Of a DNA stretch of 44,261 nucleotides, positions 1 to 37,012 are shown one piece after another. Source of the DNA: Nemertoderma westbladi (lineage: Eukaryota > Animalia > Xenacoelomorpha); assembly GCA_032718475.1 (NCBI GenBank), contig JAUCBJ010003019.1, positions 1-44,261 of the forward strand, read 5' to 3'. The position numbers and the translations under genes are program-made. The notes below the pieces were generated by a model that made no database searches, was not told the DNA's origin, and saw nothing but the letters and a program-made list of their open reading frames with translations. Position 1 is the stretch's first letter, and each line of letters starts with the position of its first letter.

Positions 1-2
1 CT

Positions 3-8462: not shown

Positions 8463-10755
8463 ATGTCTGACACAAAGCAAAACCTGTCAGACAGTCTCCT
8501 AGATACAACCATCTGTGACCCAGACAGGAGTGTGGAACGTGTGAGACCAAAGTTCAACCTCCTACTGTAAGAAAGATCATCCCTCCAGTAGTAGTATCAG
8601 ACCCTAGGCTAGTCCAACACCGTAGGTCTATCATAGGCACTCGGGCTCAAGTCAAGCGGGATCAAGAAGCAGCTGTCAAACAGCAGCAACAAGCGAGCCG
8701 AGAACTTATTTCTCAGCGGCCCGATAGCTCCAGTAGTTCAGATACTGTAGAGCTGACACCCGAGCGCGGAGCAGAGATGGCAGATGCGGTTTATTCAGAC
8801 CCCCTTCTCATTCTTCCTGCAGCCGTACTCACTAGGTTATTGATTGCGGTCGAAGAACACCAAATCGATTGGGCGAGAAGTAAGCGATCGACCAAGGATA
8901 GTTATGCGGGATACACAAGGGTGGAACTGAAGTCTATTGTCGAGTCGCAATGGAACTTCCCCGGACCCAGACTCCCGTTTAACTTATCGGAAGCTACCTG
9001 GGAAGACTTACACAGGATGGGAGTGACAAAGGACACTAGTGATCCGGCTGTGTGGAAGAGGTCGGCAGCAGGATATGTACAGAGATTCTTCAGCTCTTTG
9101 GAGCGATTAGAGGAACAACTGTTTCAACAACCCCAAGGACCTCAAGAGCAGGGAGAGCTGCTTTATCAAGTTCGAGAAAGAACTCTAAGAATCAGACTAA
9201 TCTTATCGGCCTTTGAGGAAGCTTCGAAAAGAAAACAAGACACGTCGTTGCAAGTTGCCGTAAAGACTTAGTTCCAGCGGGTGGGTCTCAAGGTTCAAGG
9301 AACGGCCCAGTGGAAATCTCAGCTGGCTGAGCGCTCAACCCATGGAGAATCAACAGACGCTACCTTTTCTCAAGTGTAAAGCGAAGCGACAGCAGAGAAA
9401 CCGCAGAGGAGGGACGCTATTGACATCTATCTGTCAGACTATCAACGATTTCTAGGCGATGAAGAGTTGAGGAGAAGGCTGGCTGGACTTCGCCCTAATA
9501 GTGAAGAAGCCAAGCTTGTGTTGGACGCAATAGATGCGGAAATGTTAGCTGCGAACCAAGCTAAATTTGATGAACGCCTCCGCATCGCTAGAGTCCAAGA
9601 AGAACAAGTAAAGAAAAAACGTATAGAAGACAGAAAGACAGCAGCAGCGGCAGTGGCAGAAGTTGAAAGAAAAGTGGCAGTGGCAGCGGCAGAAGCGGAA
9701 AGAAAAGCAGAAGAGGCAGTGGCAGAAGCAGAACGGAGAGTGTCTGAAGAGACCACCCAACTAGAGTTGGAAAATCTTCAAGAGAATCAAGACTACATAA
9801 ATAAACAGTTAGCAGCTAGTCAGATGCAGATGATAAGTCGATCTACTCCCAAAAGGCAGGGATTTACATAATCTGATGAAGGCGATACTACCGATCCTGA
9901 AGGTGGAGGAAATAGATCTCGTCTAAACAGGCGTAGAAGAATCCCCCACCATCAGAAATTGCCTGATTTGCCCCCAGCTGTGAGAAGGCAACTAGCTAGC
10001 ACGGACTTAGGTAGTACAGAACCCACAGACCAAATTATTAGAGTAAAAAGACTCCCTACTATAGTAGATGAACCTGAAATAATTAGGCCTGTTCTCGAAG
10101 CCACCCCCTCTGTGATAGAGACCCCTGTACTTCCAGAACCCAACTCTAAATTCCCTTTGCACAGCACTAAACTACCTGTGCCCAGCAGAACAGCCCCTGA
10201 AACAGCTCCTGTCCTGGACTCCGAGCGAAATATCAATGATTTGTTGCCCATTGTCCCTCGTCCGCCCGCTACTATGTTGGCGGCTCCCGCTTCGGCGGTT
10301 GAGTGGGTGGATGAGGGACGGCGGGGGATGGATCTCCTGCTCAGGCAGATGCAGGAGACGGTCCAACAGTTCAATGGCACAGTAACGGAAAGTAGGTTAG
10401 AGTTGCAAGAAGTGCAGCAAAGTATCGCATTAGAACGCGATAAATTGGTAAATACCCAAAGGGGTATACCACCAACCCCAGTAACAATGTGTCAACCTGC
10501 TAGGTCTGAAGTATTTCATGCGCAAGGTGTGGAGCCTACACGCATCTATACTGCTAGTGAAGTAGAAACTCCTATAGTAAACCCTATTAAGGGTAATTAT
10601 AAACCTGTTGACAATGATATTCCATATAGACCTGATCATAATCCGAGAAATTTATATACCGATAACTCGATATTAAATAACACGATGGCCCAAGAAAGTT
10701 TTACACGTCAAATGGCTAGAACCGAAGCCCGTCAAGCGGTAAAGGTGGGAGAGAT
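8463..10755 (+). pseudogene. A gag, N-terminal part (stops and frameshift; pieces 8777-9271, 9467-9871, 9959-10755)
   Basis: ATG 8463 reads MSDTKQNLSDSLLDTT, homologous to the B start. Premature stops are present (e.g. 9869-9871). Cut by a LINE at 10755. Confidence 0.85.
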
Positions 10756-11268
10756 TTTTTTTTTTTAACATTTATTATCCAAAGAAGAGGACAATTGGGC
10801 AACAAGCCGAAGCTTATGAGAGCCCTCTTGTCAATAATTACAATACAATTTGCACAACAGACATACAAAGGAAAGAAGCACAGTGCACATACCCAGGTAC
10901 TACTACATAAAAAGGAACGAGGTATCACACACACAACACATACCCAAACCAAAAACATACGTGAAGATCCAGCGCAGTAGGAAGTTGAAAAATTGATATC
11001 CCAAAAGTAAGCCAGCAATTAAGCGATCAGTAGAGTGAATATAGAAAATTACTGTTACAACTAAGTGGAATAAAAAAAAAAAAAATTTTTTTGTGTGTTG
11101 CAACCACAAATGTTGGAAATTAAAATTTGTAGAGGCGAAGATTTAGGTTAAAAAAGAATTACTATAGGTTCGGTTGTAATTTAAAAAAATAATATCTGGG
11201 TTTATTGTAGGTTATTCATTTCATTAAGATAATGAGCGTCTAGGTCGCCGTGCCGATGTCGGATGACA

Positions 11269-14200
11269 CTAATACCCTAGGAAATTAAAACGACCCGTGT
11301 TGGATACAAATGCGGAGATTATGTCGATAAGAGCCTGCGCCTTGGTGTGCTGCATAGTTATGGAGGGTGGGTGATTAACATCTGTTGGAGGGCCATATAA
11401 GATAGTAGTCAATGTTGGCCTTAGTCCTAAATTTGAAATAGCTGCATGCAAGACAACATGAAGAGAGTGATAATGGAAACATTCCATAAAGTAGTGGAAT
11501 GCGTCCTCTCGCTGATGACCGCAGGAACATGATTTTGTTAATTTAACATGGTTAGAGAAGAGATCGGAATTCAGTGAGGAGCAATTGCATCTGAGTCGCG
11601 CCAATAGGCCATTGATTGATGGTGATCCCAGGGTATAATAATAAGGAACAGGAGACGAGAAACATATTACTGGAAATACACCATTCCTGAAACTTTCAAT
11701 TGTGCCTGAATAACGCAAATCGATCGGAAGTGAGTTCCACAATCTAACAGTAGAAGGTAGGAACGAATCTCTGTAGAAGTTCCTATGGGCCATAGGAGGG
11801 CGTACATTCGTGGAGTTGCGGGTGTTGTATGCACTAGCGGACCTAACAACAGGTGGAAGGATATCCAATAAGTGTTGGGGGGCGCGGTCCGTCATCATTT
11901 TGTAGAATACACACAATTTCTGAAAATCTCGTCTTTGTTGAAGTGGGCACAGCCCAGATTCCTTATACAATTTGCTCGTGTGGCAAGAAACTGTCAATCT
12001 GCAAACTATTCGAATAGCTTCCTTATTTAGGAGCTCCAACTCCATTTTGAGATCCTGAGAGCAGTTGTTCCAAACGGTACTGGCATATTCCAAGTTTGAG
12101 CGGACAAAAGATTTGTAAATATTCATGAGTGCATCCCTGCTAACCTTGTATTTAACAATTCGTAACATATTTAACTTATTATTTGCAGATTTTAGAATTT
12201 TTTCAACCTGTGAGTGCCATTTTAGGGAGGATGAAAGAATAAGACCAAGATGTTGGTGCTCTTCAACTTCGGGGATCGAGATACCATTGAGGAAGAGAGG
12301 AAGATGATTAGGATCGCGTGACCTGCGATGTGAGAACAGCATACTCTCAGTCTTCGAGGGATTGAATTGAACTAACCACCGCGCGCCCCAATTGGATATT
12401 GATGTAAGGTCTGCATTAAGATTAGATGCGGCAAGAATGCAGTTGGACCTGGAATTGACCTCTATGTAGAGAGCGGTGTCATCAGCATAAAGGCTAATGT
12501 TGCCACTAACTACATCCACTATGTCATTGATGAAAATCAAAAACAGTAGGGGTCCCAGGACAGAACCTTGGGGGACTCCAGCCAAGACCTTCACCCAAGA
12601 CGATTGCTGACCATTCACTACAACACATTGAAAATTGTCATTCAAATAGTTGTGGAGCCATTCCAGAAGCTTCCCCCCAATTCCCATGTTTTCCATTTTA
12701 TGCAGCAGACTTTTGTGATGGACTTTGTCAAAAGCCTTACTTATATCTAGAAATACAATTCGGACCTCCTTCCCTTTGTCTAAAGCACTAACAAGGGCGT
12801 TATAGAGTGAAATCAATTGATAGATAGTACCGTCCCCACCCTTGAAACCAGACTGAAATTTGGAGATGTAGGTCTTAACATGAGTGAAGATTATTCTATG
12901 GATGTAGTGCTCGAACAACTTCCCAAGGTTACTGGTAAGGGCAACTGGACGAAAGTTGTTACAAATATCATTTGGAAATTTTTTCAAGAGTGGCAGGACA
13001 TAGCGCATTTTCCATTTTTTTGGATGATACCCGCTATCAAAGATAAATTGAAACAATTTGGAAACGTGAGCTATTATCACAGGCATTCCAGCCTTTATCA
13101 TTCTGTTTGAAATTCCTTCGGCAGGACAGGTAGCACCATCTGGGTCTAAAGCTTTAATGTCGCACAGAATTTCAGATGCACAAAAGTTGATCTCGGTAAG
13201 TATAGGTTCCGGAGGAGCAGTTTGGGGCATAATGAAGTTAGATTCGTCCAGTGAGTATTGATCAATAAAGAAAGAGTTAAAGAGGTCCGCCTTCTCCTTG
13301 GGTGACACAGCAACGATGTTATTATGAGATACCGAGGGAATCTCCGGTTCCAGAGCTTTTCCCATTAATTGTTTGCAAATTGACCACCATTGTTTGCTGG
13401 AAGACCTTGTTGCAAGAAGTTTTTCTGAAAGGTTTGCAAAATACTCATTTTTGGCTTTGCGGCATTCTAGAACGTACTTATTTCTAGCTGAACGAAAGTT
13501 GTTCCAAGAGTTGCCATTGTTGGTGGATTTAGCAACCCGATGTACTCTATCTTTAATGCGAGAGAGGCGTCTTAACTCAGTGGTACACCACGGCTTATCA
13601 TTTGGGCGTACTGTAATAATTTTATTCGGAATTGAAGAACTCGCACAAAGGAAAAATCGGTCTGTCCACGCCGAAACGATGTCGTCAACATCAGTGTAGT
13701 CCGTGTAGACACTGTCCCAATTAGTTTCAGTCAAAAGGCGCCTGAATTTTGGAAAATCCGCCTCCTTATAAAGCCAGATCCGTCTAGTGTATGCTGGTAT
13801 TGTGTTAATAGGAAATTTATAAGAGAAAGAAATTACGCAGTGGTCGCTTGTACCGTAAGGGCTCGAAATATCTATGTTAAAGATAGAATTCGGAAGAGTG
13901 GAAATAACTGGGGATGGTGATGTACTAGTAGTTTGGGTTATGCGAGTAGGCTCCTGAATATACTGGAACAAACACTGACGCAATATAAGAGAGGAAATAT
14001 CACGACATTTAGTTGGATCTAAAAGGTCCTGATTGAAGTCTCCCAAAATAAGAATCTCCTTGAATCCTAAACTCTTTGCTTCTGAAACCATAGAATTAGC
14101 TACTTCCCAGAAGTTACTAGGGGTGGTGCTAGGCCGATAGAATAGACCGATAGCAAGTTTTTTGCGGCCAAAACTACAGGAGCACCATAATGATTCGAAT

Positions 14201-14667
14201 AGTGGGTCAATGTTCTCGATGGTGCTAAGCCTCTTAACTTTAAACTTGTTGGAAATGTATAAAGCTAAGCCACCACCAAGAGACGGGCGATCACGGCGTT
14301 GTGGCACATGAAAATTAGATATCAGAAATTTATTAGAAATCTGATCAGATGAAAACCAGGTCTCGACGAATGCAAGTATATCAAAGTTTGAGGATAGATT
14401 ATCTGGCAAAAAATCCCAATTACAAGGCAGTGAACGAATATTTGTCAGCATAACTTTAATAGATGGAAGAGAGGGGCCTGGGTTAGGGTGAATATCCCCG
14501 GATATATATAAAATAAAAGTTAAACATGCAATAAACCACGCAAGAGCTAGGCCATGGAAAAGCAGTAAGGAAAACGTGTCACAAAAATTTTCGCTTCTAC
14601 AGTATCCAGAGGTAGCCCCGTGAAAAGTCCCCACGCTTGCTCGCCATTGCTCAATAGAAATGTTCAT
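11269..14667 (-). CDS. LINE ORF2: APE endonuclease plus reverse transcriptase (1132 aa) with N-terminal 2A-like motif and C-terminal Cys/His motif
   Basis: Motifs NIRS, ETW, GDFN, SDH (APE); FLDISKAFD, GVPQGSVLGP, YADD (RT); CSCGHQREDAFHYFMEC. Confidence 0.95.
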   Translation of the reverse strand: MNISIEQWRASVGTFHGATSGYCRSENFCDTFSLLLFHGLALAWFIACLTFILYISGDIHPNPGPSLPSIKVMLTNIRSLPCNWDFLPDNLSSNFDILAFVETWFSSDQISNKFLISNFHVPQRRDRPSLGGGLALYISNKFKVKRLSTIENIDPLFESLWCSCSFGRKKLAIGLFYRPSTTPSNFWEVANSMVSEAKSLGFKEILILGDFNQDLLDPTKCRDISSLILRQCLFQYIQEPTRITQTTSTSPSPVISTLPNSIFNIDISSPYGTSDHCVISFSYKFPINTIPAYTRRIWLYKEADFPKFRRLLTETNWDSVYTDYTDVDDIVSAWTDRFFLCASSSIPNKIITVRPNDKPWCTTELRRLSRIKDRVHRVAKSTNNGNSWNNFRSARNKYVLECRKAKNEYFANLSEKLLATRSSSKQWWSICKQLMGKALEPEIPSVSHNNIVAVSPKEKADLFNSFFIDQYSLDESNFIMPQTAPPEPILTEINFCASEILCDIKALDPDGATCPAEGISNRMIKAGMPVIIAHVSKLFQFIFDSGYHPKKWKMRYVLPLLKKFPNDICNNFRPVALTSNLGKLFEHYIHRIIFTHVKTYISKFQSGFKGGDGTIYQLISLYNALVSALDKGKEVRIVFLDISKAFDKVHHKSLLHKMENMGIGGKLLEWLHNYLNDNFQCVVVNGQQSSWVKVLAGVPQGSVLGPLLFLIFINDIVDVVSGNISLYADDTALYIEVNSRSNCILAASNLNADLTSISNWGARWLVQFNPSKTESMLFSHRRSRDPNHLPLFLNGISIPEVEEHQHLGLILSSSLKWHSQVEKILKSANNKLNMLRIVKYKVSRDALMNIYKSFVRSNLEYASTVWNNCSQDLKMELELLNKEAIRIVCRLTVSCHTSKLYKESGLCPLQQRRDFQKLCVFYKMMTDRAPQHLLDILPPVVRSASAYNTRNSTNVRPPMAHRNFYRDSFLPSTVRLWNSLPIDLRYSGTIESFRNGVFPVICFSSPVPYYYTLGSPSINGLLARLRCNCSSLNSDLFSNHVKLTKSCSCGHQREDAFHYFMECFHYHSLHVVLHAAISNLGLRPTLTTILYGPPTDVNHPPSITMQHTKAQALIDIISAFVSNTGRFNFLGY

Positions 14668-15269
14668 TTAAAAAATTTCGAAAGAAAAAAAAAACGAGAA
14701 AAGTTGTGAGGAGCGAGCAGGGGGGGGGGGGGGGGGGGGGGGCAGTGATGCAACACACAAAGCGCGTAATAAGCTTACCTTTGGATAAAAATATTTTTTG
14801 CAAATAGGATAAGAGACATGGCAGTATGAAGATGCTGATTGGCTTGAGGGAAATCCAACACACATGACATTCACACACACACACCAACTCACACAGCAGA
14901 CACAGACAACAGACATACAAAGTGATATAATGTGGTATGAAGTGAAGAGAAGGGAGAATGAGTGAACCCAAGAAATGGAAAAGATGAATTAATTTCAAAT
15001 TTGACTGTGGTCTATATTCCCATCACCATAAACGTTAATAACGATATTGTACATACATAGGCCTGTGGCAATTGAAAATTAATACATACAAAAGATCGGC
15101 GAGCAAATAAACGTAAATTAGGTGAATTATATCCACGCATAAGAGGAATCGACTATGTTCATGCGAAATTAAGTTGACTGATACGGAAAATATATATGCT
15201 GAATATTTCAAATACAACTGTTCTGGAAAATATTTCAAATGCCAAACTAATGCGTAAATTAAAATGAAT

Positions 15270-15790
15270 GATATAAAATATGGCACTTAGTAGGCTGATA
15301 AATTTACGCGGAAATTAAATTAAATACCGGTACTGGAATATGGCGCTTAGTAGACTGAAGTATATGTAGAATATTAAATACTGAAATATGAATGCAGAAA
15401 TATGGCGCTTAATAAATTGAAATATTTATATAGAGGATTAGATACTGAAATATGGCGCTTAATAAATTGAAATATTTATTAAAATATGGCGCTTAATAAA
15501 TTGAAATATTTATATAGAGGAATAGATACTGAAATATGGCGCTTAGTAAATTGAAACATTTATATAGAGGATTAGATACTGAAATATGGCGCTTAAAAAA
15601 CTGAATATTTATGTGGAATATTAAATACTGAAATATGGCGCTTAGTAAATTGAAATATTTATATAGACTATATATAAACTGAAACATTTATGTAGAACAT
15701 TAACTACTGAAATGTGGTGCTTAGTAGGCTGAAATATTACCGCAGAAGTTAAAGATTAAAATATGGCGCATAGTGACTAAAATGCTTGAA
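15270..15790. repeat. Degenerate ~50-bp minisatellite in the LINE inter-ORF region
   Basis: Repeated ACTGAAATATGGCGCTTA(G/A)TAAATTGAAATATTTATATAGA units, about 10 copies. Confidence 0.85.
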
Positions 15791-15928
15791 TAGAATATTA
15801 AGCTAACTAATAAGAAATATACTTCTGAAACTTGAAACATTTGACTTGGTAAAAATGATATAACTGAATCAGTAAATACCGGTAGATGGTCAGTACCGAT
15901 ACAGTTACGATGAACATCACCTGCTCAA

Positions 15929-16984
15929 CTATTCTTCGGACGACCCACGAAGACCGATCAGAAGGGAGAATAATCTGGGGGACAAGTCAGACTGGAGGAA
16001 ATTGAGGACGTCTGTTAGAATCGTTAGATCTTTGGTAGCACAACGATCCTGTCCACCGTTGATAGCGTCCTCTACGACCTTGCGAAGTGAATCCACTCGG
16101 AAAACATCCCGCTTCTCGCCCGACAACAACTTGATGTATATGGCACCGTCGCGTGTCCAACAGTCCGATATTAATTTCATTTTGACAAATTTACGGCACT
16201 CAAGGAATAGAAGGGAGCGGTAAGGCGTGAGGCACTCGTTTACATAAATACGATCTGCCCGTGAGTCTGTCTTTAGTTTGAAACGGCCACGGTAGAAATG
16301 ATCCCTTGCCCTATACGTACTGAACTTTATGACTACCTGCCTTTTGTTGCGGGAAAGGTGAATTCTAGATGTGTCGCGAAGTAGATCGAATGATGTTACC
16401 CCACAACGCCGAGCGACCTCTACAACGAATGTGTCAACAACGTCATTAGTGGAAGCGGGAGAACTGGCTGCCTGCACGGCAGTCGCTTCTGCTGAAGGGC
16501 CGGATAATATAAGAGTGTTACGGCGCGAATATTGGGACTCATTATCACTTTTAAGAGCAAGAGCATTGATATGGGTTTTTTGGACAGAGCATCCGGTACA
16601 AGGTGACTCGAGTCGGCTGAGAAGAGATGTCGTCAGCGAGTCGAATTTAGCAGATATCGATCTCGTTATATTGTCTGCAAAGGACTGTAATAAGCCGCGC
16701 ATATCATCCTTATTGCCAGTAGTGAAATTCGAGATAGCGGAGGAAAAAGTCGGTTCGTCTTCTTCGCCCCAGTCGAGCGTCGTAGTCTGCGTCGCCTGAG
16801 GTACCGGTACCGATACCGGTAAACGTTTCGGATCTGGGGAGGCTACAGATGAGGAATGAGACGTTGCACTGTAAGAACGTTTGGACGGACCGTCACTACG
16901 ATTTAATTCTGTTTCTGTCATGCGAGTGCAAGTTCCCGTTGCCGTTGGGTTCATTTCGCAGCGGGAAGGATAGCAGTGAGGCAA
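15929..16984 (-). CDS. LINE ORF1 (coiled coil, RRM-type, C-terminal domain), 351 aa; exact start uncertain
   Basis: QYSRRNTLILSG, VVIKFSTYRAR, IYVNECLT and CWTRDGAIYIK are typical CR1-group ORF1 motifs. Same strand as and upstream of ORF2. Confidence 0.88.
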   Translation of the reverse strand: MPHCYPSRCEMNPTATGTCTRMTETELNRSDGPSKRSYSATSHSSSVASPDPKRLPVSVPVPQATQTTTLDWGEEDEPTFSSAISNFTTGNKDDMRGLLQSFADNITRSISAKFDSLTTSLLSRLESPCTGCSVQKTHINALALKSDNESQYSRRNTLILSGPSAEATAVQAASSPASTNDVVDTFVVEVARRCGVTSFDLLRDTSRIHLSRNKRQVVIKFSTYRARDHFYRGRFKLKTDSRADRIYVNECLTPYRSLLFLECRKFVKMKLISDCWTRDGAIYIKLLSGEKRDVFRVDSLRKVVEDAINGGQDRCATKDLTILTDVLNFLQSDLSPRLFSLLIGLRGSSEE

Positions 16985-17103
16985 TAGAACGACGGTAGGC
17001 CTATGTAGTACGGTACAATTTATTAAAAGCCTGAAATTGGTGTATTGGGACTAGGATGTGCACTAGGCCTCCATTATTGTACGTACAAGTATATCAAGTA
17101 TAT

Positions 17104-20100
17104 CGTCAAGTTCAATGGAGATGAGATGAAATGGTTACCTTTTAATGAATATTATAAAGATAACATACAGAACTCTGTGCTATCTAACGGAGAGAAACTT
17201 AGATTCCTCATCGAGTGCTTGGAAGGATCTCCCAAGTTAATGGCGTTAAAGTTTATTGGACATCCAGATGGATTAAGACAAGTTTGGGATACACTAAACA
17301 TCAGGTATGGTAATAGGAATAACATAGCTAGGTATTTGTATGCAAAACTAGTAGCGCCCCGAAAGTTCATTAGCAGCGGGATTATAGAGTTTTCCGATGA
17401 GATTCAGGAGATCTGTAGACAATTAGATTGGCTAGGTAAGTCTCATGAATATCAGAGTTCTATGGTTATTGGAGCCGTAGCATCTACTTTACCCAAGGGT
17501 GGAGTAGCTACACGCTGGGATAAGAAAGTGTTATATATGATGGAACAACAACGACGAGACCCTACCATGGCTGATCTCATGTCATTCTTAGATGGAGAAG
17601 TAAAATTACAGCTCCTAAAGCAGTCCAGGGAGAAGACACCGGAAAATAAGGTAAGTGAGAAACCCGTTTCTAGGAGAAAGGTAACACCAGTGTGTTATAC
17701 AGACGACGGCGAAAGCCAGGCTTCTCAAGAAGAAGACAGCGGAAAAGACACTGAAAGATCTTACTATGTAAACAAAGCGTCTAAAGACGTAAGTAAATTC
17801 AAGTCTCGAACCAATGACAGGAGAGAACAGGTAAGAAAAACTCCTCCTACGTCTCCTAAGAAAATTCATGTAAGAAAGCCCGAAGAAAGAACGAGTGTGC
17901 ACAACGTTACTCAAAGTAAGGTAAGTAACATCAAACCGAAATGTGCGCTGTGTGACGGGCCCCACCGTTTGAGCGTGTGTGATGAATTCCTAAAGAAATC
18001 ATTGAAAGATAGACGTGAAGTCATGTGGGATAAGCGGTTGTGTTATAATTGCCTCAGACAAGGACACCAACGGCGAACCTGGTACTCCGATGCAAGGTGT
18101 GCAAAGTGCGGCGCAAAGCATCATATCTTGTTGCACACTGAATTCGAATGAAACAGCCTGAGTCAGGTAAGTGAGTCCGAACTACATGTCCAATTCAGTG
18201 ATGTGAACGACACTGACCAAAGTTCTGAGATGGAAGGATTTTATACGGACGAATTCTCCGATGAAAACGAATCCTGTTACCTAATATATACCACAGTGTA
18301 TCGAGCACTTACCTATGAAAAGGACACCGACAGTGAGCCCCCCCTAACTACTCCTGACCGACAACCATCTTGGAAAGCACCAACTTCCAACGTAGGAATC
18401 AGAGAATTTCCCGTAGTGCAGTTGAGAGTCCATGGGCCAAACAAAAGCTATATAGTGAATGCCCTCCTTGACTCCGGCAGCACAGGAACATTCATCGACA
18501 AAGAACTAGCCGAAGACATCTTTGCTGGACAACCCAAATTCCGAACTAAGTTAAACATGTCAGGAATTATGAGGTTTGGAAATCTACAGTAATTGCAGAT
18601 TATTATGTAGGTACGTTGTCCACCCCCCAGGATGAACTAGGAGAACACAGTATAAGGTCAGTAAAAATGGTGGCGATAAAGAACTTCGCTACCAGCCAAG
18701 TGGAACCTTATAACTGGGATGAGGACGATTTCACCCAGCAGCTTAAGATACCTAGATTTAACACAGACTACCCTGGAGTGCAAATACTCATCGGCCAAAA
18801 TGCGCATGAGGCGCTTGAGACATTGGAGAAACGGCCTGCTCAACCGCAACCACTACAAGCTTATGCGGGAAGAACTAGAGTAGGTTGGTACTTTACTGGC
18901 CCTTCCCGTAGAACTCTCATGGAAAGGTTACCCAAAGAACGGGTATACCAGGTAAGTGAATGGGAAGAGGAGTTCAGTGAGGTAGAAGACATAACTGAGG
19001 GAACACCATACTCCTCAGATAATGACGATATCCACCAACTCTTCGACGAGGAGAATACCATCGACCTCCTTACCGAAAACGAAACTTGGCAAAACCAAGT
19101 GAACCTATGTCAACTCATTCGTCCATCAGGACAAGTCGACTATAACGACGAACTGAATGACGTGATAGATCGCTACAACGCGAAGACTCGGGATGAACAC
19201 GCCGTACGATTCTTTACTCAAGAGGCTGTAGAGCCCAATTCCTACGATAAGGCCCTATCGGTAGAAGAAGAAAGAGCCAAGCAGATACAGGAAACAACTA
19301 CACGTTTTCTTAAAGATCAAGGTAGATATGAAATTGGTCTACCATTTCGAAAGCGAGAACCTAAATTTATAAACAACCGACCCTTGGCGGAGAAAAGAAT
19401 TGCGCAACTATATCGACGCCTTACGGCAAATGCTTCAGCTAAAGAAATGTACAAGACTCAGTTGAAGAAATTTATTGACAAGGGATATGCGGAGCGAGTA
19501 CCGGAAGAAACACCCATAACTGAGAGAACGTACTATCTAACACATCATTACGTTCCCAAACCCGGTAAACCCAATGAAGTCCGGGTAGTATTTGACGGCT
19601 CCGCCCTCTACATGGGCCAATCCCTTAATTCCGAGTTGTTAGCAGGACCCAACTTACTCCAATCCTTGTTGGGAATCCTCTTAAGATTACGACAATATTC
19701 AATCGCTTTCGCCTCCAATATAGAAGGCATGTTCTTACAAGTTAAGGCGCTGGATAGGGATCGAGACAGCCTACGATTTCTGTGGTGGCCTGAGGGAGAC
19801 CTCAACCAGAAACCGGTGGAGTACTGGATGACCATCCAGGCTTTTGGGATCATCTCAAGCCCTTCAAACGCCTGCTCAGTAGTAAGCACCACTGCTGATG
19901 ACAACCGGGAGGCCTTCTCTAAAGAGGTGATCGACAACATAAAACGGGATATATACATGGACGACAATTTAAAGTCCCTCCCATCGGTGGAAAAAGCCAT
20001 TGATGTCGCCAAAGGAACGGTAGAGTGCTTGAAAAGAGGTGGATTTCGATTAACTAAATTCACCAGCAACTCCCGTGAGTTTCTGGAATCGATCCCGGTA

Positions 20101-20658
20101 GAAGACCGAGGAGTGAAAGATCTAGACCTAATCAAGGACGATCTTCCAGAAACCAAGACACTTGGTTTGAAATGGGACACAGAGAGAGATATCCTGTTTT
20201 TCCAGCTAAAACAGCGAGATAATCCAGTTCGGACTAAACGGATTTGTCTAAGTATCCTGAGCACTTATTTCGATCCATTGGGATTTATTAGCCCAGTTAT
20301 ATTGATTGCTCGGAGTTTAGTACAACAAATGTGGCTTGAAAATCACTCATGGGATGATCCACTTAAGGGAGAGCTACTAACGAAGTGGATGAAATTGGAA
20401 GATTCTCTACCATCCATCGAGAACTTTATAATTTCCCGTTCCTATTTTGGTCATGTTCTCCCCACGTATTCCTATCAACTCCATGTGTTTGGAGACGCCA
20501 GCGATATGGGAATAGGTATAGTAGCCTACCTGAGAGTTGAAACTCCGGATGGAATCAAAGTCGCCTTGGTTACCTCTAAGGCATTGATAAACAACAAGTT
20601 GAAAGTTCCTCGAGCGGAGTTAAAAGCTGCTCTATACGCTACAGCCATTGGCCGTAAT
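17104..20658 (+). pseudogene. A gag capsid/Zn knuckles, aspartic protease, RT and N-terminal RNase H (stops at 18149 and 18590)
   Basis: CALCDGPHRLSVC, CYNCLRQGHQRR, CAKCGAKHHILLH; NALLDSGSTGTFI; VRVVFDGS, SLNSELLAGP, YMDD, FDPLG, LHVFGDAS. TGA at 18149 is CGA in B. Confidence 0.92.
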
Positions 20659-27599: not shown

Positions 27600-27604
27600 G
27601 TAAT

Positions 27605-29786
27605 GTAACAGAACAGATCGACTATCCACTGGAAAAAACTGTCTATTGGACCGATGCTTTACTCGTGTTGGAGTATATAACCAATGAAGTCTGTAAGTTC
27701 AGCGTCTTCGTTACTAACAGAGTAGCCATTATACTTAGTCGCACGAAGATAGATCAATGGAGACATTGCCCCGGGACGATTAATCCAGCCGACATCGCCT
27801 CCAGGGGAGCAACTCCGCAAGAACTGATAGATACTCCAGACTGGTTAAGTGGACCCGACTTTCTAAGCAAAGAAGAAGATGAATGGCCTCCTCATCTTAC
27901 CACGGCTGAGATTAGACAAGCCAAGGGAGCGGAGAAAGTCAAACCTAAAACCCGGGCGAGTAAATCGAAGTTATTTAAACCCACGATAGATCTGTCTGTA
28001 CTACACGTTTCCAGAGACGATGCTTTGGATCCACAATCCCTCGCCACAAATAAGTCTGTTGTGGAAATCAGAGAGAGAGATTGGAAATCTGGAATACCAG
28101 ACGTCTCGCAAGGACTCTCACCTCTCCTGCAGAGAGCGATACATCACTATAGTTCCTGGAATCGGCTCTGTAAGGCCGTTACATATTTAAAGCGATGTTT
28201 TCATCATCACTACTCCAGGACGAAGACCACTAGTGATAATGCTCCACTGCTGCGCTGCGCAGGTCCATGTTGTTAAAGATCTTCCCAAATACAAGATATC
28301 CGACAGGTTTCTGAAGGAGAAGATCAGTTACCAGGAGCATGAAGAAACCAATAAGCAGATACTGAGACTCCTGCAATGCTATGAGGATTCCAATAAGTAT
28401 TTCCTGTTGTTGAGAAATCCACAGATGCGCTTAAGGGATCGTTTCTCTAGCACCATGATAGATGGGTTAATACGTGTTGGAGGAAGATTAACTAGTGCTC
28501 CATTATCCTTTGACACTAAGTTTCCCATACTCATTAGAAGTCTTGAAATACAAATCAAGATGATTGTAGATGTTCACAGTAAGCTTTATCATGCTGGTAG
28601 AGAATGAGTTCTTAGCGAAATTCGAACTCGCTATTATTTTTATAAACCCCATAGAGCTCTGAACCAAGTTCTTAGGAACTGCATACCCTGTAGGAAAGCA
28701 TTCAGTAGGCCTTTAACACAGCGAGAGGTAGAATTACCTAGGGAACGAGTAAGCTTCTATGAACCACCCTTTACTAATACCGGTGTGGATTTGTTTGGCC
28801 CTATTGAAGTATATCGTGCTAGGACTATAGTCAAGAGATGGTGTGTCATCTTTGTTTGTATGACTTGTAGAGCTATCCATCTCGATATGGTGAACGATTT
28901 ATCTACTAACAGCTTCCTATTGAGCTTACGCCGACAGATCGCTCGCTTTGGAACTAGTAACACGATGAGATCTGATAAGGGAACAAACTTCATTGGTGCC
29001 AACAATGAAATCAAGGCTTACGTCAAAGATTGGAACCAAAGACAGGTGGACGATCAGCTAAGGGTAACAGCGTCTAGCTGGACCTTCAACGCCGCCGACG
29101 CCCCTTGGTGGGGAGGAAGTTGGGAGAGATTAATCAGGAGCGTGAAGACCGCATTTCACTTTATAGTGCCGTGCCGCGCGTATCTCACCGACGAACTTTT
29201 GCGGACGTTAATGGAGGAAATCGCCGCCTATCTCAACGAGAGACCTCTTATGCCAGTCTCATCGAGTCCCGATTCCCTGGAAGCGCTAACACCCGCGCAC
29301 TTCCTACTGAAGAAACCTGTAGCCATGCTCCCACGATCGGAAATCACAGACGGAGACGAATACTGCCGGCAAACTTGGCAACTTATGCAGTTGTTATCCC
29401 GTCATTTCGCTGACCATTTCGAAAAACATTATCTGCCCACGCTACAACTTCGAACTAAGTGGTTTGCGCAGCAAGAAAACGTCAGCGCTGGAGACATGGT
29501 CCTTATTGTGGATTCAGATCTTCCACGTAAGCGGTGGCAGACAGGTCGTATCATCGAGACTCATATCTCGGATGATGGTTTGGTGCGATCGGTAGAACTC
29601 GTCGTCATGCGACGTAACTTTAAGAAACCGGGAATTGTCTTCGAGACGCAGCAACTCAATCGCCCAGTTGGTCGTTTATGTTTACTGGAAAGAGACAGAG
29701 AACTCTCCGGAAACTATGGAAGGCAAGATACTCTTCCCACGACCACCTCCCTAATCCAACAAACATCTAGGGACTCCCCAACGTAA
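27605..29786 (+). pseudogene. A RNase H C-terminus and integrase (HHCC, DDE core, BEL C-terminal domain); frameshift near 28250 and stop at 28605
   Basis: YWTD, WRHCPGTINPADIASRG, WLSGPDFL, GLIRVGGRL, HSKLYH...CIPC, GVDLFGP, RAIHLDMV, SDKGTNF, WERL, LNERPL, LTPAHFL. Confidence 0.93.
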
Positions 29787-29791
29787 CAGCG

Positions 29792-29805
29792 TCTGGAGTG
29801 GGTGT
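29792..29805 (+). promoter_or_regulatory. Second PPT-like motif directly after the pol stop
   Basis: TCTGGAGTGGG|TGT resembles the terminal TCTGGGAGCGG|TGT at 35812-35825. Confidence 0.45.
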
Positions 29806-30311
29806 GTGACTATATTATTTTATATTTGCTTTTATTATTTTATACTTATGTATGTATTATTATGTAATTTTATTATAATCGTTTTCTTTAATTTTATTTA
29901 GTAGAATGTTATTTTAGCGATTATTTAGTAGATTAGTGCCATATATATTCGCGTTTATTACTTAATTACTTATATATTATATATTTAGTGCGACGGCGAG
30001 AAATAATTTCTTTTCTCTTTCCTTACTGTCCGTATTACATTATAAATATGTGACTACAGTAAGATGAAATATCCGTACTTATTAAAGTACAATAAAGCTC
30101 CTACTATATTCAAGTATTATTGGTAAGTAGAGTATTAGGAATGCAAAGTTCAGATCCTCGTGTCTCGGCTAAACCAAGCTCTGGGTAGACCTTGGAAACG
30201 ACTTGCCTCTTCTCACTGACATTGCTTCTTGCGATATTGCTCTCATACCGTATATTAAATAATACATATAGTAGCGTGATGTCCCTCTAACAGTAGCGTA
30301 CAATGCAAAAT

Positions 30312-30700
30312 AAATCTGTTAAACCCTTTGACCTTCTGTAATTCTAGTCGATTAAGATATCGCGGCACCCACCGATATACTTGAAAGACAAAATTCTAGA
30401 ATCAGTGGTTAACGTCCCCAGACAAGTTCTGGAATAAACCGGTGCCCATCTTAAATATTAACTATTAATATTTATAAAATCTGTCAAACAAATACAATAG
30501 AGTAAATACTTACAAGTTAACTCTAGAAAATCTATAAATCAAAATCTGTCAAATTTGAGATCCTTTAAAATTCTAGTCGATTAAGATATCGTAGCACTTA
30601 CCGATACTCTTAAAAGGACAAATTTCCTAGAATTCAGGATCCTAGTCCCCAGACATGTTCTGGAATAAAATTGTGTCTATTTAACATTAAATAATAAAAT
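30312..30700 (+). repeat. Diverged ~150-bp direct repeat (period ~230 bp) in the pol-accessory spacer
   Basis: ATTCTAGTCGATTAAGATATCG...GTCCCCAGACA.GTTCTGGAATAAA occurs at ~30341 and ~30570. Confidence 0.8.
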
Positions 30701-31489
30701 TTACGGGAATAAATTCTAATTCATCTCTTTTAATGAATTTGATAAATTGTCATTTTATACAATTTATAACATTCCCAAAATTCCATTAATTAATAGATCA
30801 TGGGAGCGGAGATTCACCCTATTAAGTGTATTAGTGTGCGAGAATCTCCAATATATAGTCAATAGCCGATAAAATTCATAAAATCATGTATAAAGGGGAT
30901 ATTAACAATTAAAGAATTACTATTAAATAGCATCCCAGATCTGTTTGCATGAGAATTACCCTAATTCTACCGCTAGCTTTCCATAATGTCACCATAGCAA
31001 CAACCACGCTAGAATTAGAAGTGAGTTAAAAGAACAATAGGAAGCTTGCCCCATTGAATAGCATAGGGAATAAATAGCACACTGCTAGTATCCAAGGATA
31101 CATAATAATAACGTGGCATTCTGGAAGGCACTGACTAACGGACAAATGGCCCGAATGTGTACAATTTGTGACAGTTGTGTGGAATTTGTGCGTTTATAGG
31201 TGAATGTTACTACTAAAGTGTGTTTACAGTAGCGAGTCGCAATTGTGAAAGTAGCCCTAACTGTGCCGTAAGAACCTGAAGTAAATCTAAGCCTTTGGGA
31301 TGGACAGTGGAGTGACTTGTGCCGGTTATCGTTGTCGTTGTGTAGCTACTACGTTGGTGAAAAACACAGCGACGACGGCACATCGGCGCTGAGGATCTTG
31401 CACTGTCCGGGGGCCGAGAGGGGTAGGCAGCGACGCCCGCTAGCCTAATTATAAACTTATTATAATATTAATAAACTCATATAGCAGAT

Positions 31490-33517
31490 ATGACTGAGTT
31501 GATAGAAGATGATCTTGGTATCAGGGAGCGATATACTCTACCTTTACAAGCGTTTGTTGATAGCTTGATACGCGGCGACGCTAGTCCAACTACTACGGAG
31601 GACGATGGTCGTTATATCGAACCGCCAATGTCCCAGGAGTAACTTACGCGTGAATTGGACTATAGAAAATTCACCGCTCGCTATACGCATCGTAATGGTA
31701 CGTATATGGACTTCTTAACTACTGGCCATCCTATCGATTTACACGATACGGACGACGTAGACACCGAAAGGGAAATGGTTTTATTTAAATATCATACCCA
31801 GCGGAGTCGGAACGATAAACCGAGAATAGAACACGAGAATTCTATTCGGAACCGACTCGAAAGAGAAGACGTTGAAGAGCCGGATAAACGCAGCGACTTC
31901 AACGATTATATGGAATTCCTGAGAGAAACATATCTCAATATTGCCAGTCAACAAAATCTAGAAACTCGATATCCTCAAGGTATACATCATGACCCTATGA
32001 TAGAACTCAAACGGCTCTATTTCACTATGATGTATCTTACCGCCGATCGACCGCTACCTGTCATCCCAGATAGCTTCGAACAGATGGAGGAATATTGTAA
32101 AACTGGAGAACGATCACCCGCGTTTCCCCTGCAGGACGTGCGTCTTTGGTATTACTGCGACGAATGCCCTAGACCCAATCAGCAAACAGAAAGACATAAA
32201 CATCCACGGAGACGTTGCGCTAAACACAGTTTTACACGATATACTTATGGGAGTTTCGAGCGAAACCTGTTTGACATATCACCTACGCTCGCTCGACTCA
32301 AACGATCCTTAAATAAACCAATGATCAGAGTTCCGGAATACTCGGTCAGACCTCCTCATTCCTTAGTGAGACCTCAAATGCTCGATCCTAATAGTATAAC
32401 GGATCCCCCTGAACTGTACTCACTATTTAAAGATCTTGTGTTACCCGAACAATTAATCGGTGGCACTCCAGTAGTGGGCTCGCTAGATATTCGCCCACCC
32501 TACCTAGCCGGATTGGCACGCGGTCATCTAATATCGCCGTTTAACCCGTACAACCGTCCAGGTTTAACCCCGATACAACCCGTTACCGAAGTCGAAGAGA
32601 GCGTTGTACAAAACGCGTTAGACGCTATTCGGCAGAAGATCGGAAAAGGAACTTACGATTGTTTAGAGAAATGCAAATTGCAGCAACAAGTCCAAGCGGT
32701 GAAAGAATTAGCTTTACCCCAGTTCGATAGAGAAATCCAGAACCTCGAGGAAGACATCGAACATGGACGAACCTATTCTCAACAAGAGTTCCTAGACGAG
32801 CGTTTACAACAACAAGCGGAGGAAAATCAGCTCGAGGAGAAAAACATAGAAATGGATGAGAGAGAAGAAGCAGCTTTAGCCCAGCCAGAAGCTCAAATCC
32901 TTATGACGGATCTCTATTCTAAAACCATCATCCATCCTTCGATGGTTCCCCATTTCGGAGACAAACTCTTCGCCACGGCACAGCCTCAACCGGTTGATAT
33001 CAACCTAAGATCTCGAGATCTTATCGCTGACGCTCCCATGTTGCAACATCCGCCAATCGAGGCCGCTCGTGTCGATGGTATACTCGCTGTACCTCCGGAC
33101 AATAGAGCAGATCTTGTCCGTCGTATGGTACACGAAGTTAACATACGCGCTAGACCTTTACTGAACTCGTTTTATGGGATCAAAGATCACCCTTATTATG
33201 TCAATCTAACGCAATATTACATGGTAAAACCGGAAGATCCTACACATAGTCTGAGGTTTCTACCACTAATAAATCCTCTCGATCTTGTCGAACTCGAACA
33301 ACTGCAGAAACATCTGGATCAGTTAGTGAAAGTAAACTCATTTCGAAAACCCTATAATGTTTCCAGAATAGAGAAAGATACAATACCTCCGTATAATCTT
33401 GATGGATTTATCAAAACTCGATTAGTCCACTGGAATCTCGACGTGTTATTCGAGGAAGAAAGAATACAACGATATGGAGAATGTAGAAACATATACTACA
33501 CAGTATTTGAAGTATAG
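31490..33517 (+). CDS. Accessory ORF-X of A, unknown function (~675 codons, one in-frame TAA at 31640), with a CxxC...CxxH motif and Glu/Gln coiled coil
   Basis: ATG 31490 (MTELIEDD) is in frame with the 620-aa track ORF. Contains WYYCDECPRP...RRRCAKH. No family recognised. Confidence 0.7.
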
Positions 33518-35744
33518 AGATCTACCTAATGCTAGCGAATGCGCCACCTTGTGGCATCCAGTGGGAATGACTCTAGAAAGCGCCACTAAAGAGTGGAATG
33601 AGACTCTTAACGTTATCGAGATGTATGGAGTTGTCACTTACGATAACGAAGGTAGCGTTCCGGTTGGAGAACTGGGAACTACGCGCATGATACATATACG
33701 AGGACTAGCTGGTTCTACCCACGTATTCACTCGAGCGTGTTCCGATGTGATTGATTATTCTTTTGAGACCCTTACCGAGATACAAAAGAAACTCCGACAT
33801 GGACAATTCGAACTCGCGCAGCGTTACGTCACCGACACCGAGCGTAAACCGGCCATGGGTATCGATGGATCGATGATACCCCAGCCCGTGCTCGAGATGT
33901 TGTTTAATGAAAGAATCCTTAAAATCGGCTCAGCTGTTTATGGAGATCTCCAAAACGACTTTCGGAACATGGAGAACATTCCATACCCTTTCGTCGATAC
34001 TCAGCTGATTGCTCCCTGGGCAGAAGGCCGAGGTTTCTTCCGCACTATGTATGCAAATACACCCAGCGGCATTACTAAAGTACAACGAACCACCATCGGA
34101 CATCTTGCCTTTCAAGAATACGGATGGAATTTCAAGGTTGGAAATCCTATCAACTACCAACAAGTATATGGAGATCATTATTCTCGATTATACTTTGATG
34201 GACCATTGACCGCACCTGGTGCCGTGTATAGCTTTATGAGTGTTCCACTTCGTCCCTCTTTAGCTATATACATGATCTTTGAAAACGCCGCACTTGCTGG
34301 TTGGCTAGCCGATGTGTGCAGTCGTACTATACGCGCCCATCCCTTAATACTTGGAACCAAACTCGCCAAGCTAGATGAACACAATAAATTCATCCGCTTC
34401 GAATGTTTCAGGCGCTTTCTGACTCCGTTCCGTAACGTTGATAGTCAGTTCAAGGACCGCGCTCTGACCAAGCTCAGCCTAAGAGACTCAGCTGCTGAAA
34501 AGTTAGACAGCGCGGGATTCGCCATTTTCAAGGACGTTTGTATACAGAACTTACATTCATCTGTTATACAAAGACCTCGAATACCCACGGGTTATTCTAT
34601 CGTGGAAGTTCAGACAGCGGGTTCGCATGAGGAGACAGCCGCACCTACCTCAGCTATGCAATTGGAAGACGAACCAATATGCTTAGAATCTGAGGAGATT
34701 CAGCCTACAGCGCCCCAGAGCAGCGATAACGACTACGTCTTGGAATGGTATCAAGGTCCACAATGTCTCACCGCATACGATTATCGGCACGCCAACTATG
34801 TTTCTCGAAAACGTTGCCGATTATGCGCATCGAGAGATCATTTCACCCCTATGGACTCAGACGTACCCTGCTCCTATTTCCATGAACAACCGATGATGGA
34901 GATCTATTGTGCGTATTGCAGACTCAATAACTCGCACATTTTCGCAGTCTGCCCCCAATTTATGACTCAATGCCATCATTGTCAACTTAAAGGACATGCC
35001 AGTTTTAATTGCCCTTTTAACCGCGATCTGGAAAGCGTAGATGAGATGATTACCCTGCGCTACATCCGAGCTTGGGAAGCGAATGCGGATTTACATTGTG
35101 AGTCACGCCATCGCTATTACCCTGGACGCGCCTACGAAGGAGTTTACGCATTCCATCCTTATCTATTCGCGTCTGTTGAACAAAAATCGCGCACACCGAG
35201 TTACGAACTAATGAAGCGTGTTGGTGAGTGTATTTCCACCAAATTTGTTCGTAAATATCTCAGGAACATCAATCCTAACGATATTAATTCATACAATTTG
35301 ACCAATTTCATCCGTCAAGACCCGGAGTATGGCGATTTGTTCATCAACTCGCATCCTGAATTACAGGAAGTACATCGACGGCCTTACGAATATCGAGCCC
35401 GAGAACGCGAGCTGGAAAGAACCATTAAACCGAGGAAGTTTCTCACCACTCACGGTCTGCCTACCGCTATCGTTCAGACGACTTGTCAGGGACCAGTAGG
35501 AGCTGCTGTCCTAAGACGCGCTCTAAAGGCCGTTAGACCTCGCTCCACTGAAGTTGATATCGATCAACCAGGTACCTCGACCGGCGGATACACCGACTGT
35601 AATCCTAAACCTTCTGATGCAATTGTATTGCACCCTTCACCCAGGAGTTATAGCCCTCCTAGTAAAGTGGCTCGCCCCAAAGAGAAAAGGACTCTTGCTA
35701 GCCTCAAAAAACTGCGTAAACGCCGTCCGCACAAGAAAGACTAA
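33474..35744 (+). CDS. Accessory ORF-Y of A: DEDDy-type 3'-5' exonuclease (WRN/RNase D/Mut-7-like), tandem CCHC Zn knuckles, basic NLS-like tail (756 aa)
   Basis: ExoI VVTYDNEG; ExoII IPQPVLEMLFNERILKIGSAVYGDL; FVDTQLIA; TIGHLAFQEYG; ExoIII-like PLRPSLAIYMIFE; CRLCASRDH, CAYCRLNNSHIFAVC, CHHCQLKGHASFNC; KKLRKRR. Confidence 0.78.
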   Translation: MENVETYTTQYLKYRDLPNASECATLWHPVGMTLESATKEWNETLNVIEMYGVVTYDNEGSVPVGELGTTRMIHIRGLAGSTHVFTRACSDVIDYSFETLTEIQKKLRHGQFELAQRYVTDTERKPAMGIDGSMIPQPVLEMLFNERILKIGSAVYGDLQNDFRNMENIPYPFVDTQLIAPWAEGRGFFRTMYANTPSGITKVQRTTIGHLAFQEYGWNFKVGNPINYQQVYGDHYSRLYFDGPLTAPGAVYSFMSVPLRPSLAIYMIFENAALAGWLADVCSRTIRAHPLILGTKLAKLDEHNKFIRFECFRRFLTPFRNVDSQFKDRALTKLSLRDSAAEKLDSAGFAIFKDVCIQNLHSSVIQRPRIPTGYSIVEVQTAGSHEETAAPTSAMQLEDEPICLESEEIQPTAPQSSDNDYVLEWYQGPQCLTAYDYRHANYVSRKRCRLCASRDHFTPMDSDVPCSYFHEQPMMEIYCAYCRLNNSHIFAVCPQFMTQCHHCQLKGHASFNCPFNRDLESVDEMITLRYIRAWEANADLHCESRHRYYPGRAYEGVYAFHPYLFASVEQKSRTPSYELMKRVGECISTKFVRKYLRNINPNDINSYNLTNFIRQDPEYGDLFINSHPELQEVHRRPYEYRARERELERTIKPRKFLTTHGLPTAIVQTTCQGPVGAAVLRRALKAVRPRSTEVDIDQPGTSTGGYTDCNPKPSDAIVLHPSPRSYSPPSKVARPKEKRTLASLKKLRKRRPHKKD

Positions 35745-35822
35745 CTGTTTAGAGTATTTTTATATTTTAGAAACTGTGATTTTTTATATTTTATAGAATT
35801 AAATCCCATTTTCTGGGAGCGG

Positions 35823-37012
35823 TGTAAAGGCTTTTGCGTAATTAGCTGGTTATTTTCCCCGCCAAGTACTCTGTAGGTGTTTTAGCGGACATAAAAAGCC
35901 GTTTCCTTACTGTACCGGCGTTTTAGTGGACATAAAAAGCCATTTCTTCTGTATGTGTACTTTAGCGGACATAACTAGCGATTTTATGTCGCAATACGCC
36001 AAAATACTCTTGATACAGTGAAAGTTCAGATGACGACATCTATCAGCTGATATGTACACGTGTAACTTTTTCTTTGTTCTTTGTTCGGTCGACCAATCAG
36101 AGCAATTTTCATTTTATTTGTACAGAAGCCTCCGGGAAATCGCGCAATGCATTATGGTTTATGTTTACCTTTTTTCCTGATGCCACAACATCGGCTGTGG
36201 AATTATTCTGTGTTTCAGACTTTAGCCAAACATTAGAACGGCTTTGATCATAGAAACGTATAACTGTTATAATATTATCATATTGTCACAAACTGGCATA
36301 CTGCCCATATCATACCATACATACCGTTCACCGCATAATTTTACTGCTATTTACTGTCGGTTATTAATTGTATCAGTTGATGGAATATTGTTATATTTGG
36401 AGAATATCGATAAATAATCATAAAAACCCCAATCTTCTTGATATACTGAAGGTGAGAGACCGGTTACATATAGCAATTGCGACTTACATTATAGTGGTTT
36501 TGGAGTGAATCTAATGCTATTTCATAGGCCCTACATGTATCGGTTGCTGTTCTCTTTATATGTGACTAAAATTAGTGAAGGTCGGCAGATCGGTGTGCAG
36601 CATTGTGCGGTAGTGTGCATGAGTGTGATAGATAACAAAGCATCTCCTAAAGAATGCGCTTTATACGTGAATCAATAGCCATCCCGTTGTGTTTAGTGTA
36701 AGTCATAACTCTGTTTACATACTTAGAGCGCCACGTCCTAAAGGAACTGTTAATATTCCCCGAAAGTGAATAATATTTGTCAGAGATTTTATATTAACGA
36801 TCAATCGAATAATACAGTAGGCCTACACCGCAATAAGGTCAGAGCATCCGAATCCAGTCTCCCGGGTAAATCCAGCGGGTGAATGGTCGCGCATAGGCTG
36901 GCTTCGGCTAATGTAGTGCATCAAATACTTGTCATAGGCTAAAGTCGATTTATAACCTAGAAGACACCTAAATTTGGCAGGTTAAACTACTAAAGGTCTA
37001 AAAGCGCGAACA
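35823..37012 (+). repeat. 3' LTR of element A (1190 bp), preceded by PPT GGGAGCGG
   Basis: TGTAAAGG...GCGCGAACA; both termini match the B LTR. U3 has three ~40-bp repeats TTTAGCGGACATAAAAAGCC (35880-35980). Confidence 0.87.

Follow-up and report, generated by a model that had tools for sequence, protein, structure and literature searches.

Positions 1 to 44,261 of contig JAUCBJ010003019.1 (assembly GCA_032718475.1) from the xenacoelomorph Nemertoderma westbladi, that whole 44,261-nucleotide stretch being the window referred to below, hold a long terminal repeat (LTR) retrotransposon of BEL/Pao type, here element B, which has between its integrase and its 3′ LTR a third gene that is maintained by selection and whose product is likely to combine an exonuclease domain of RNase D type with zinc knuckles. 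The whole explanation that we favour, at a probability of about 0.45 and so somewhat short of even odds, is that this gene would provide an exonuclease acting in trans against host silencing RNAs or their precursors. Attention was drawn to the gene by a prediction made from the DNA letters alone (the original prediction), which saw in open reading frame (ORF) C a DEDDy 3′–5′ exonuclease joined to knuckles, in the position of env. The frame is indeed open for 756 codons, with the motif residues and the ends where that prediction had placed them; its stop is exactly 70 nt 5′ of a purine tract. As the maximum stop-free run in 2,000 base shuffles was 233 codons, a chance ORF was rejected.

Do other copies of the element have the gene and, if so, have they diverged as coding sequence? 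In place of assembled genome copies, contigs from public sequencing runs were aligned to the region from integrase to LTR. The third-gene stretch was found in five of the seven public runs listed, four of them labelled as one organism and the fifth as another, and in all four runs aligned, the second label included, each of 30 bins from integrase to LTR was covered, by variants 80–99% alike. The variants used, the 40 best supported of 2,218 differences and 40 of 224 in a second table, came after merging of repeats and dropping of 10 rows outside ORFs B and C to 53 in ORF C and 13 in ORF B, the frame preceding it. In ORF C 42 of the 53 listed variants are silent, against 17.6 expected when the same base changes are placed randomly (28/36 in the nuclease part, 13/14 in the knuckles), and its two wrong frames give 5/53 and 7/53. 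The P value of 8e-12 has to be discounted, as the variant tables are partial and the copies related, and such overstatement is a point against us; the direction is clear. The third gene is family-wide and is under purifying selection.

Contig joints in several runs skip 2.7–2.8 kb (31858–34664 and 32841/32852–35582), so the family includes deletion derivatives that lack the nuclease domain, and derivatives without the nuclease core are abundant among the joints. Contig depth over the nuclease core is lower than over its flanks, a depth that is not copy number and is not used as evidence. These derivatives, together with the dead state of the window copy, lend something to the notion that ORF C derives from a single capture of a piece of host gene, of no use to the element and by now drifting, an outcome for which the original prediction had allowed. 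However, the stretch is complete in all four aligned runs, in diverged variants and under a second organism label, the strong excess of silent change largely refutes the notion, and no close cellular homolog of ORF C was present among 1.84 billion representatives scanned. We regard a one-off host fragment as very improbable. The same scan brought up P0001 (E 4e-7) and P0002 (E 8e-4) as relatives, both matching at ~30% identity and 21–24% identical to ORF C overall. A 5.8-billion-protein set, searched over near-length and shorter proteins (those of the size of B plus C lay outside the search) and with alignment A1, gave no match; A1 found no relatives among viral contigs, and tblastn against plasmids gave only noise.

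Reading frames of the third gene

ORF B has a Cys/His cluster, a Pro-rich part and a Gln/Glu-rich part. It has no family match in Pfam, NCBIfam gave nothing useful for it, and the viral contig collection holds no relatives of it. The original prediction took it for a separate upstream partner; most likely it is instead the N-terminal half of the same protein, parted from ORF C by a frameshift in the window copy. At 33479–33480 the length of twelve contigs is off by one base relative to the window (four in run X1, two in X3, four in X4 and two in X5), and in the overlap zone the frame in which listed changes are silent also switches there, with three of four upstream silent in frame B and three of three downstream silent in frame C. 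Because the length difference and the silent-site switch coincide, ORFs B and C are likely to be one third gene of ~1,350–1,420 codons that is split in the window copy (~1,345 codons from 31706, or ~1,417 from the ATG at 31490 if the in-frame stop at 31640–31642 is also a lesion). Translation probably does not begin at the ATG at 33474, since in other copies the frame continues from ORF B.

Could ORF C nevertheless be a gene in its own right, read from that ATG or reached from ORF B by programmed frameshifting? P0001 and P0002, which have no B-like N-terminal half, begin ~55–60 residues before the ExoI motif, as ORF C does, and in three runs the length difference appears in just a fraction of the depth (1,573 of 23,441 in X1, 1,449 of 7,771 in X3 and 10.7 of 28.1 in X5), which weighs against a single gene. 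On the other side, in X4 it is shown by all of the depth (486/486) and by all four contigs that cross the site, it recurs in contigs of the other three runs, and the depth of aligned contigs falls ~10-fold in the junction bin in X1 and X3; short contigs ending at 33479–33480 cannot show the difference because they stop there. With the switch of silent sites at the junction as well, we consider either arrangement improbable.

The original prediction was right that the gene stands in the slot of env. It was rejected as an env itself: by hydropathy, the only measure used, a membrane segment is missing from both B and C, the maximum over 19 residues being 1.33 in C, 1.07 in B and 0.46 in the 5′ segment.

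The nuclease domain, the knuckles and the active site

Residues ~45–290 of ORF C are likely to belong among the DEDDy-like exonucleases, nearest to RNase D, on the strength of profile comparisons. Alignment A2, of the nuclease regions of ORF C, P0001 and P0002, was compared with bacterial reference domains by hhalign. It matched 15 RNase D domains with P 2e-5, a value reached by none of 60 column shuffles (the reversed control gave P 0.29). With 8 PolA domains P was 0.009, as it was with 12 mostly WRN-type stand-alone domains, and 6 short RNase D-like stand-alone domains, which we take to be NrnC-like, gave no match (P 0.2). The original prediction's 'WRN-like' therefore gives way to RNase D, within a comparison of small profiles of unequal depth that left eukaryotic WRN, EXD and Mut-7 outside. 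Against all 41 mixed PF01612 domains the result was 91% with P 1.2e-6, and none of 40 shuffles equalled the two-sequence version. A search of 186 sequences with an RNase D hidden Markov model put ORF C at the top (E 4e-5) with P0001 next, the only two matches among 18,950 NCBIfam models were both RNase D (E 0.004 and 0.02), and 25 of 30 ESM Atlas matches lie in PF01612-bearing clusters, the best at 0.92 with 164 shared features and the top three unnamed. PHROGs returned an unnamed family at E 0.043 and an exonuclease family at E 0.18.

What ORF C shares with bacterial RNase D (TIGR01388, PRK10829) and with PF01612, DNA_pol_A_exo1, is the ExoI DxE, the ExoII Asp, P(F/L)xDTQ and P-x7-Y-x3-acid. 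D57-N-E59 (33642 and 33648; D-V-E in P0001) falls in register with the DTE of RNase D ExoI, and D158 (33945) with the ExoII Asp of the RNase D, PolA and stand-alone sets; PFVDTQ matches the RNase D P(L/F)xDTQ. P258-Y266-E270 (Y at 34269, E at 34281) keeps the P-x7-Y-x3-acid spacing where all 15 RNase D domains have P-x7-Y-x3-D. In a global hhalign comparison the insertions put ExoI and ExoIII out of place. The exonuclease that the original prediction called DEDDy stands as far as ExoI and ExoII go; in place of the canonical ExoIII Y-x3-D both ORF C and P0001 have Y-x3-E, for which reason the domain is classed as DEDDy-like, a DEDE variant, rather than as a canonical member.

A number of results pull the other way. 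Pfam gave no match for the nuclease domain even at E 10, and the NCBIfam RNase D scores, 16 and 14 bits, are far under the curated cut-offs of 299 and 516. By itself ExoIII matches weakly (P 0.054, though reached in 0/60 shuffles), and the distance from ExoII to ExoIII is ~40 residues longer than in RNase D. PolA proofreading domains can be aligned to the stretch from ExoII to ExoIII and to the KIG...D motif (P 0.009, 0/40 shuffles), so the substrate could be DNA. The two AlphaFold models have a predicted local distance difference test score (pLDDT) of only 32; Foldseek with the domain model gave no match at E 0.001 and no DnaQ fold, and the best hit in a VIA fold search with it had Z 6.0 over residues 35–90. 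At such model confidence the fold searches are uninformative, and support for a DnaQ-like fold comes from the profile comparison; in our judgement such a fold is very probable. Searches of PDB sequences with ORF C alone and with A2 gave no match, nor did A2 in two bacterial genomes. ORF C is not RNase D or Rrp6 proper, having two ~40-residue insertions and, by Pfam, no HRDC match behind the nuclease.

Instead, some 160 residues behind the nuclease, come three knuckles (C448–C513). Their number and place are as first predicted; only the third is an exact CX2CX4HX4C, the first (CX2CX4HX9C) and second (CX2CX5HX4C) being irregular. Four knuckle modules from the three proteins have 18 invariant columns, those of a conserved post-knuckle module included. 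The uncharacterised P0001 (648 aa) and P0002 (633 aa, from locus L001) have the same order of nuclease domain, triple knuckle and post-knuckle module, and P0001 also ends in a basic tail. The tail of ORF C is as basic as had been predicted and is possibly a nuclear localisation signal. Among solved structures the knuckle profile scores best with human immunodeficiency virus (HIV) nucleocapsid (E 2e-4), followed by LIN28 and Air2 (to E 0.009), and all ESM Atlas matches for the knuckle part are below 0.9.

The 3.7-kb contig of L001 lacks reverse transcriptase (RT). It has a purine run followed by TGT (2062–2075) ~45 nt 3′ of the P0002 stop and, ~890 nt further (2955–2972), CA, two bases and TGGCGA, after which comes an open acidic frame (3388–3685), a layout resembling third gene, polypurine tract, LTR, primer site and gag.

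Is an exonuclease fused to CCHC knuckles, a combination that the original prediction did not recognise, without precedent? RNase D of Trypanosoma brucei (TbRND) has four C-terminal CCHC knuckles, a combination that its authors regard as very unusual, and there the CCHC domain supplies RNA binding and raises cleavage of guide-RNA tails (Gao et al. 2021, PMC7797062). Like ORF C, it puts a CCHC array, instead of HRDC, after an RNase D-type exonuclease. It differs in being a cellular gene, with four knuckles, a 28-residue linker and a canonical DEDD site, where ORF C has three knuckles at a greater distance, followed by the conserved module, and a DEDE site. The match to TbRND entries was confined to the knuckles, and was weak (7c45, E 0.75; 7c42, E 5.8), so the likeness is one of analogy and the fusion probably independent. 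As an analogy, TbRND would be the best mechanistic model for ORF C.

The ExoIII Glu had been seen as a possible sign of decay. P0001, though only 24% identical, keeps all five site residues, D-V-E, the ExoII Asp and Y-x3-E, and because so distant a protein has the identical Glu, the residue looks inherited. No variant falls on any of the five site codons among 40 of the 224 variants for the stretch; one change nearly private to the window copy, in the same set, lies beside Y266. Is the enzyme then active? Glu can still bind metal, and conservation of four acidic residues and the Tyr between such divergent proteins argues for activity, as does, to a degree, the interpretation of rotifer ORF3 proteins with a conservative D-to-E change (DEED) as possibly active by Rodriguez et al. 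(2017, PMC5408684). Against this, the Glu replaces what in TbRND is Asp230, a ligand of metal A, whose Ala mutant retains only trace activity (PMC7797062), and in P0002 the ExoI Glu and the whole of ExoIII are lost while the knuckle module is doubled, which means that the family tolerates a dead nuclease. Nuclease activity is plausible, by analogy, and not assured. These same facts nourish the contrary idea of a catalytically weak or dead domain forming with the knuckles an RNA-binding scaffold or decoy, in the manner of Maelstrom and EXD1 in the pathway of PIWI-interacting RNAs (piRNAs), both cited in the rotifer paper as inactive RNA-binding derivatives of DEDD nucleases (PMC5408684). We hold that idea to be unlikely, though well worth keeping in mind.

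The element and its neighbours

The window holds mobile elements nested one in another. The parts of element B are given with those of the third gene in Table 1; its gag and pol are interrupted by long interspersed nuclear elements (LINEs) and a nested LTR element, and with these, the frameshift and the stop, the present copy is broken. It was assigned to BEL/Pao type by marker domains, and Pfam bears out the original prediction in this (DUF1759, E 6e-12; Peptidase_A17, E 2e-32; DUF5641, E 3e-21), the order being gag, RT, RNase H and integrase. What places ORF C inside the element is the LTR 3′ of it, bounded by TG...CA and preceded by a polypurine tract, which matches the 5′ LTR of a sister element, A, read on the minus strand (6315–5110), at 848 of 1,127 aligned columns. 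The partner LTR is known from element A only, that of element B falling outside the window. The gag of A, likewise on the minus strand, is 84–88% identical to that of B.

Table 1. Element B, its third gene and the sister LTR: positions in the window
Feature	Position	Strand	Remarks
5′ LTR of sister element A	5110..6315	-	ties the LTR 3′ of the third gene to the BEL/Pao family
gag of element B (DUF1759, knuckles)	8463..18151	+	cut by one insertion (8511-9379) and by a LINE (~10756-17101)
pol of element B: RT (YMDD at 19954), Peptidase_A17 region	18550..20658	+	severed by the nested LTR element
3′ part of pol: integrase with DUF5641	27600..29786	+	frames broken
AT-rich spacer, from integrase stop to third gene	29787..31489	+	1.7 kb
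Probable 5′ end of third gene	31490..31642	+	ATG and 50 codons, then in-frame stop 31640-31642; ORF B frame
ORF B, likely N-terminal half of third gene	31643..33517	+	9/13 listed variants silent against 4.5 expected
Likely single-base frameshift of the present copy, between B and C	33479..33480	+	12 contigs, 4/4 runs
ORF C, likely C-terminal half of third gene	33474..35744	+	756-codon frame; 42/53 listed variants silent
Candidate DEDDy-like 3′–5′ exonuclease domain, D57-E59-D158-Y266-E270	33606..34340	+	profile comparisons
Three Cys/His zinc knuckles	34815..35012	+	C448-C513
Conserved post-knuckle module (E..A...R...G..F)	35076..35153	+	common to P0001 and both P0002 repeats
Basic tail	35652..35741	+	13 of last 30 residues K or R
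Polypurine tract	35815..35822	+
3′ LTR of element B, TG...CA	35823..37012	+	1,190 bp; contig joints at 35823 too

Counting the LTR and leader of A with the parts of B and subtracting the insertions, the full element would by this arithmetic be ~18 kb, when the profile of the international committee for virus taxonomy (ICTV) gives 4.2–10 kb for Belpaoviridae (PMC8742986). With that length, and a third gene other than env, it is called BEL/Pao-type by its domains and not as conforming to the ICTV description. In that profile the primer-binding site, for tRNA-Arg or tRNA-Gly, lies behind the 5′ LTR (PMC8742986); in sister element A there is no TGG primer site within 38 nt of the end of the 5′ LTR.

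Just after the integrase stop (29790–30150) are a purine-rich run, TGTGAC and an AT-rich part with AATAAA, which resemble the start of an LTR; the stretch has no second match anywhere in the window and may be a relic of the acquisition of the third gene. As a true 3′ LTR the purine run and TG were rejected, the LTR that matches element A being 3′ of ORF C. The spacer also has a 165-bp direct repeat (30312–30474 and 30542–30703, 76% identical).

As for the neighbours, sister element A (1–6315) sits inverted within the 5′ leader of element B. The 870-bp insertion in the gag of B (8511–9379), not present in A, has a 250-codon frame with no Pfam matches. The nested LTR element, on the minus strand at 20659–27599, is young, with 531-bp LTRs 99.8% identical and a 5-bp target duplication; it has long frames with no Pfam matches, no pol, and a tandem-repeat tract at ~21800–23260. 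A LINE with endonuclease and RT (37013–40610) starts at the final base of the 3′ LTR of element B, and a related fragment, 71% identical, is in the 5′ leader of B (7878–8375). Beyond, a rhodopsin-family receptor gene in a single frame (42382–43365; 7tm_1, E 7.5e-10) adjoins a satellite of 15–17 bp units (41760–42280).

Precedents, possible function and meaning

For exonuclease capture by retroelements the original prediction pointed to bdelloid rotifers, and rightly: the Juno and Vesta LTR retrotransposons, and Athena/Terminon, have an RNase D-like DEDDy ORF3 (PMC5408684). Reviews repeat this, one of them describing the domain as a well-known accessory (PMC6431247, PMC5718144, PMC6338049). As in element B, the rotifer gene follows pol in the slot of env, has no membrane segment, and shows a conservative D-to-E change. 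The differences are that the rotifer elements lie outside BEL/Pao (the clades named are Juno, Vesta, TelKA and Mag), that the change gives DEED and not DEDE, and that the main text describes no C-terminal knuckle array, no N-terminal half of ~600 residues and no length of ~1,400 codons (PMC5408684). It reports no assay, and activity and role were not demonstrated. Neither a BEL/Pao exonuclease nor any ORF3 joining an exonuclease to knuckles was found described in the literature searched, subscription journals and Repbase lying outside that search, and no BEL/Pao exonuclease is mentioned in passages of PMC3118150, PMC2774666, PMC5029228 and PMC9094657. Both ingredients are known already, the one from rotifers and the other from TbRND; no published account came to light of the two combined in the third gene of a BEL/Pao element.

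A qualification is called for here. In 2000 Malik, Henikoff and Eickbush reportedly described Cer7 of Caenorhabditis elegans as a BEL/Pao element with an RNase D-like exonuclease frame near its 3′ end, and it is said to have a phlebovirus-like env and no knuckle fusion. If so, there is already a precedent for a BEL/Pao element that has taken up an exonuclease.

What would such a protein do? It may serve the element's own replication, by trimming the primer, the 3′ end of the RNA or the ends of the cDNA, or by proofreading for RT, with the knuckles as a second nucleocapsid. The best knuckle score being with HIV nucleocapsid speaks for this, as do the PolA likeness, an element well over the size of its family, the lack of a TGG primer site directly after the 5′ LTR in sister element A, and the suggestion in the rotifer paper of 3′-end processing of element RNA (PMC5408684). 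However, the third gene stands apart from Gag-Pol, with no obvious way for its product to enter particles, RNase D outscores PolA, and replication in other BEL/Pao elements takes one to three genes, among which the ICTV profile describes no nuclease gene (PMC8742986). A replicative function seems to us doubtful, if by no means far-fetched.

By the reading that we prefer, in which the protein attacks host RNAs in trans, it would be translated outside Gag-Pol from a transcript of its own, as suggested by the stop and the 1.7-kb spacer that separate the gene from pol. Its three knuckles would grip single-stranded RNA and pass the 3′ end to the nuclease where, on the analogy of the trypanosome enzyme, D57, E59, D158 and E270 would form a two-metal site and Y266 would position the water. 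The 3′ ends would be trimmed, and host silencing RNAs or their precursors chewed back. A host target is favoured because the gene is uncoupled from Gag-Pol, encodes a basic tail and has been lost in deletion derivatives that are abundant; with no membrane segment besides, a diffusible host-acting factor would fit better than a particle enzyme. The small-RNA target is the weakest part of this explanation. A bolder version would have an undescribed, old mobile family of 'DEDE' exonucleases with triple knuckles, carried as third genes of LTR retrotransposons (at L001 too the homolog is followed by LTR-like signals) and working as TbRND-like suppressors that bind and trim piRNAs or small interfering RNAs; we hold it to be unlikely, if not negligible.

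ORF C is a compact candidate with which to ask if the retrotransposons of animals bring counter-measures of their own against silencing by small RNAs: its nuclease and knuckle stretch is intact in the window and under selection, and a structural analogue, TbRND, predicts how it might work. It would also extend the theme of exonuclease capture to a BEL/Pao element of almost twice the described size limit, and offers a naturally conserved DEDE active site.

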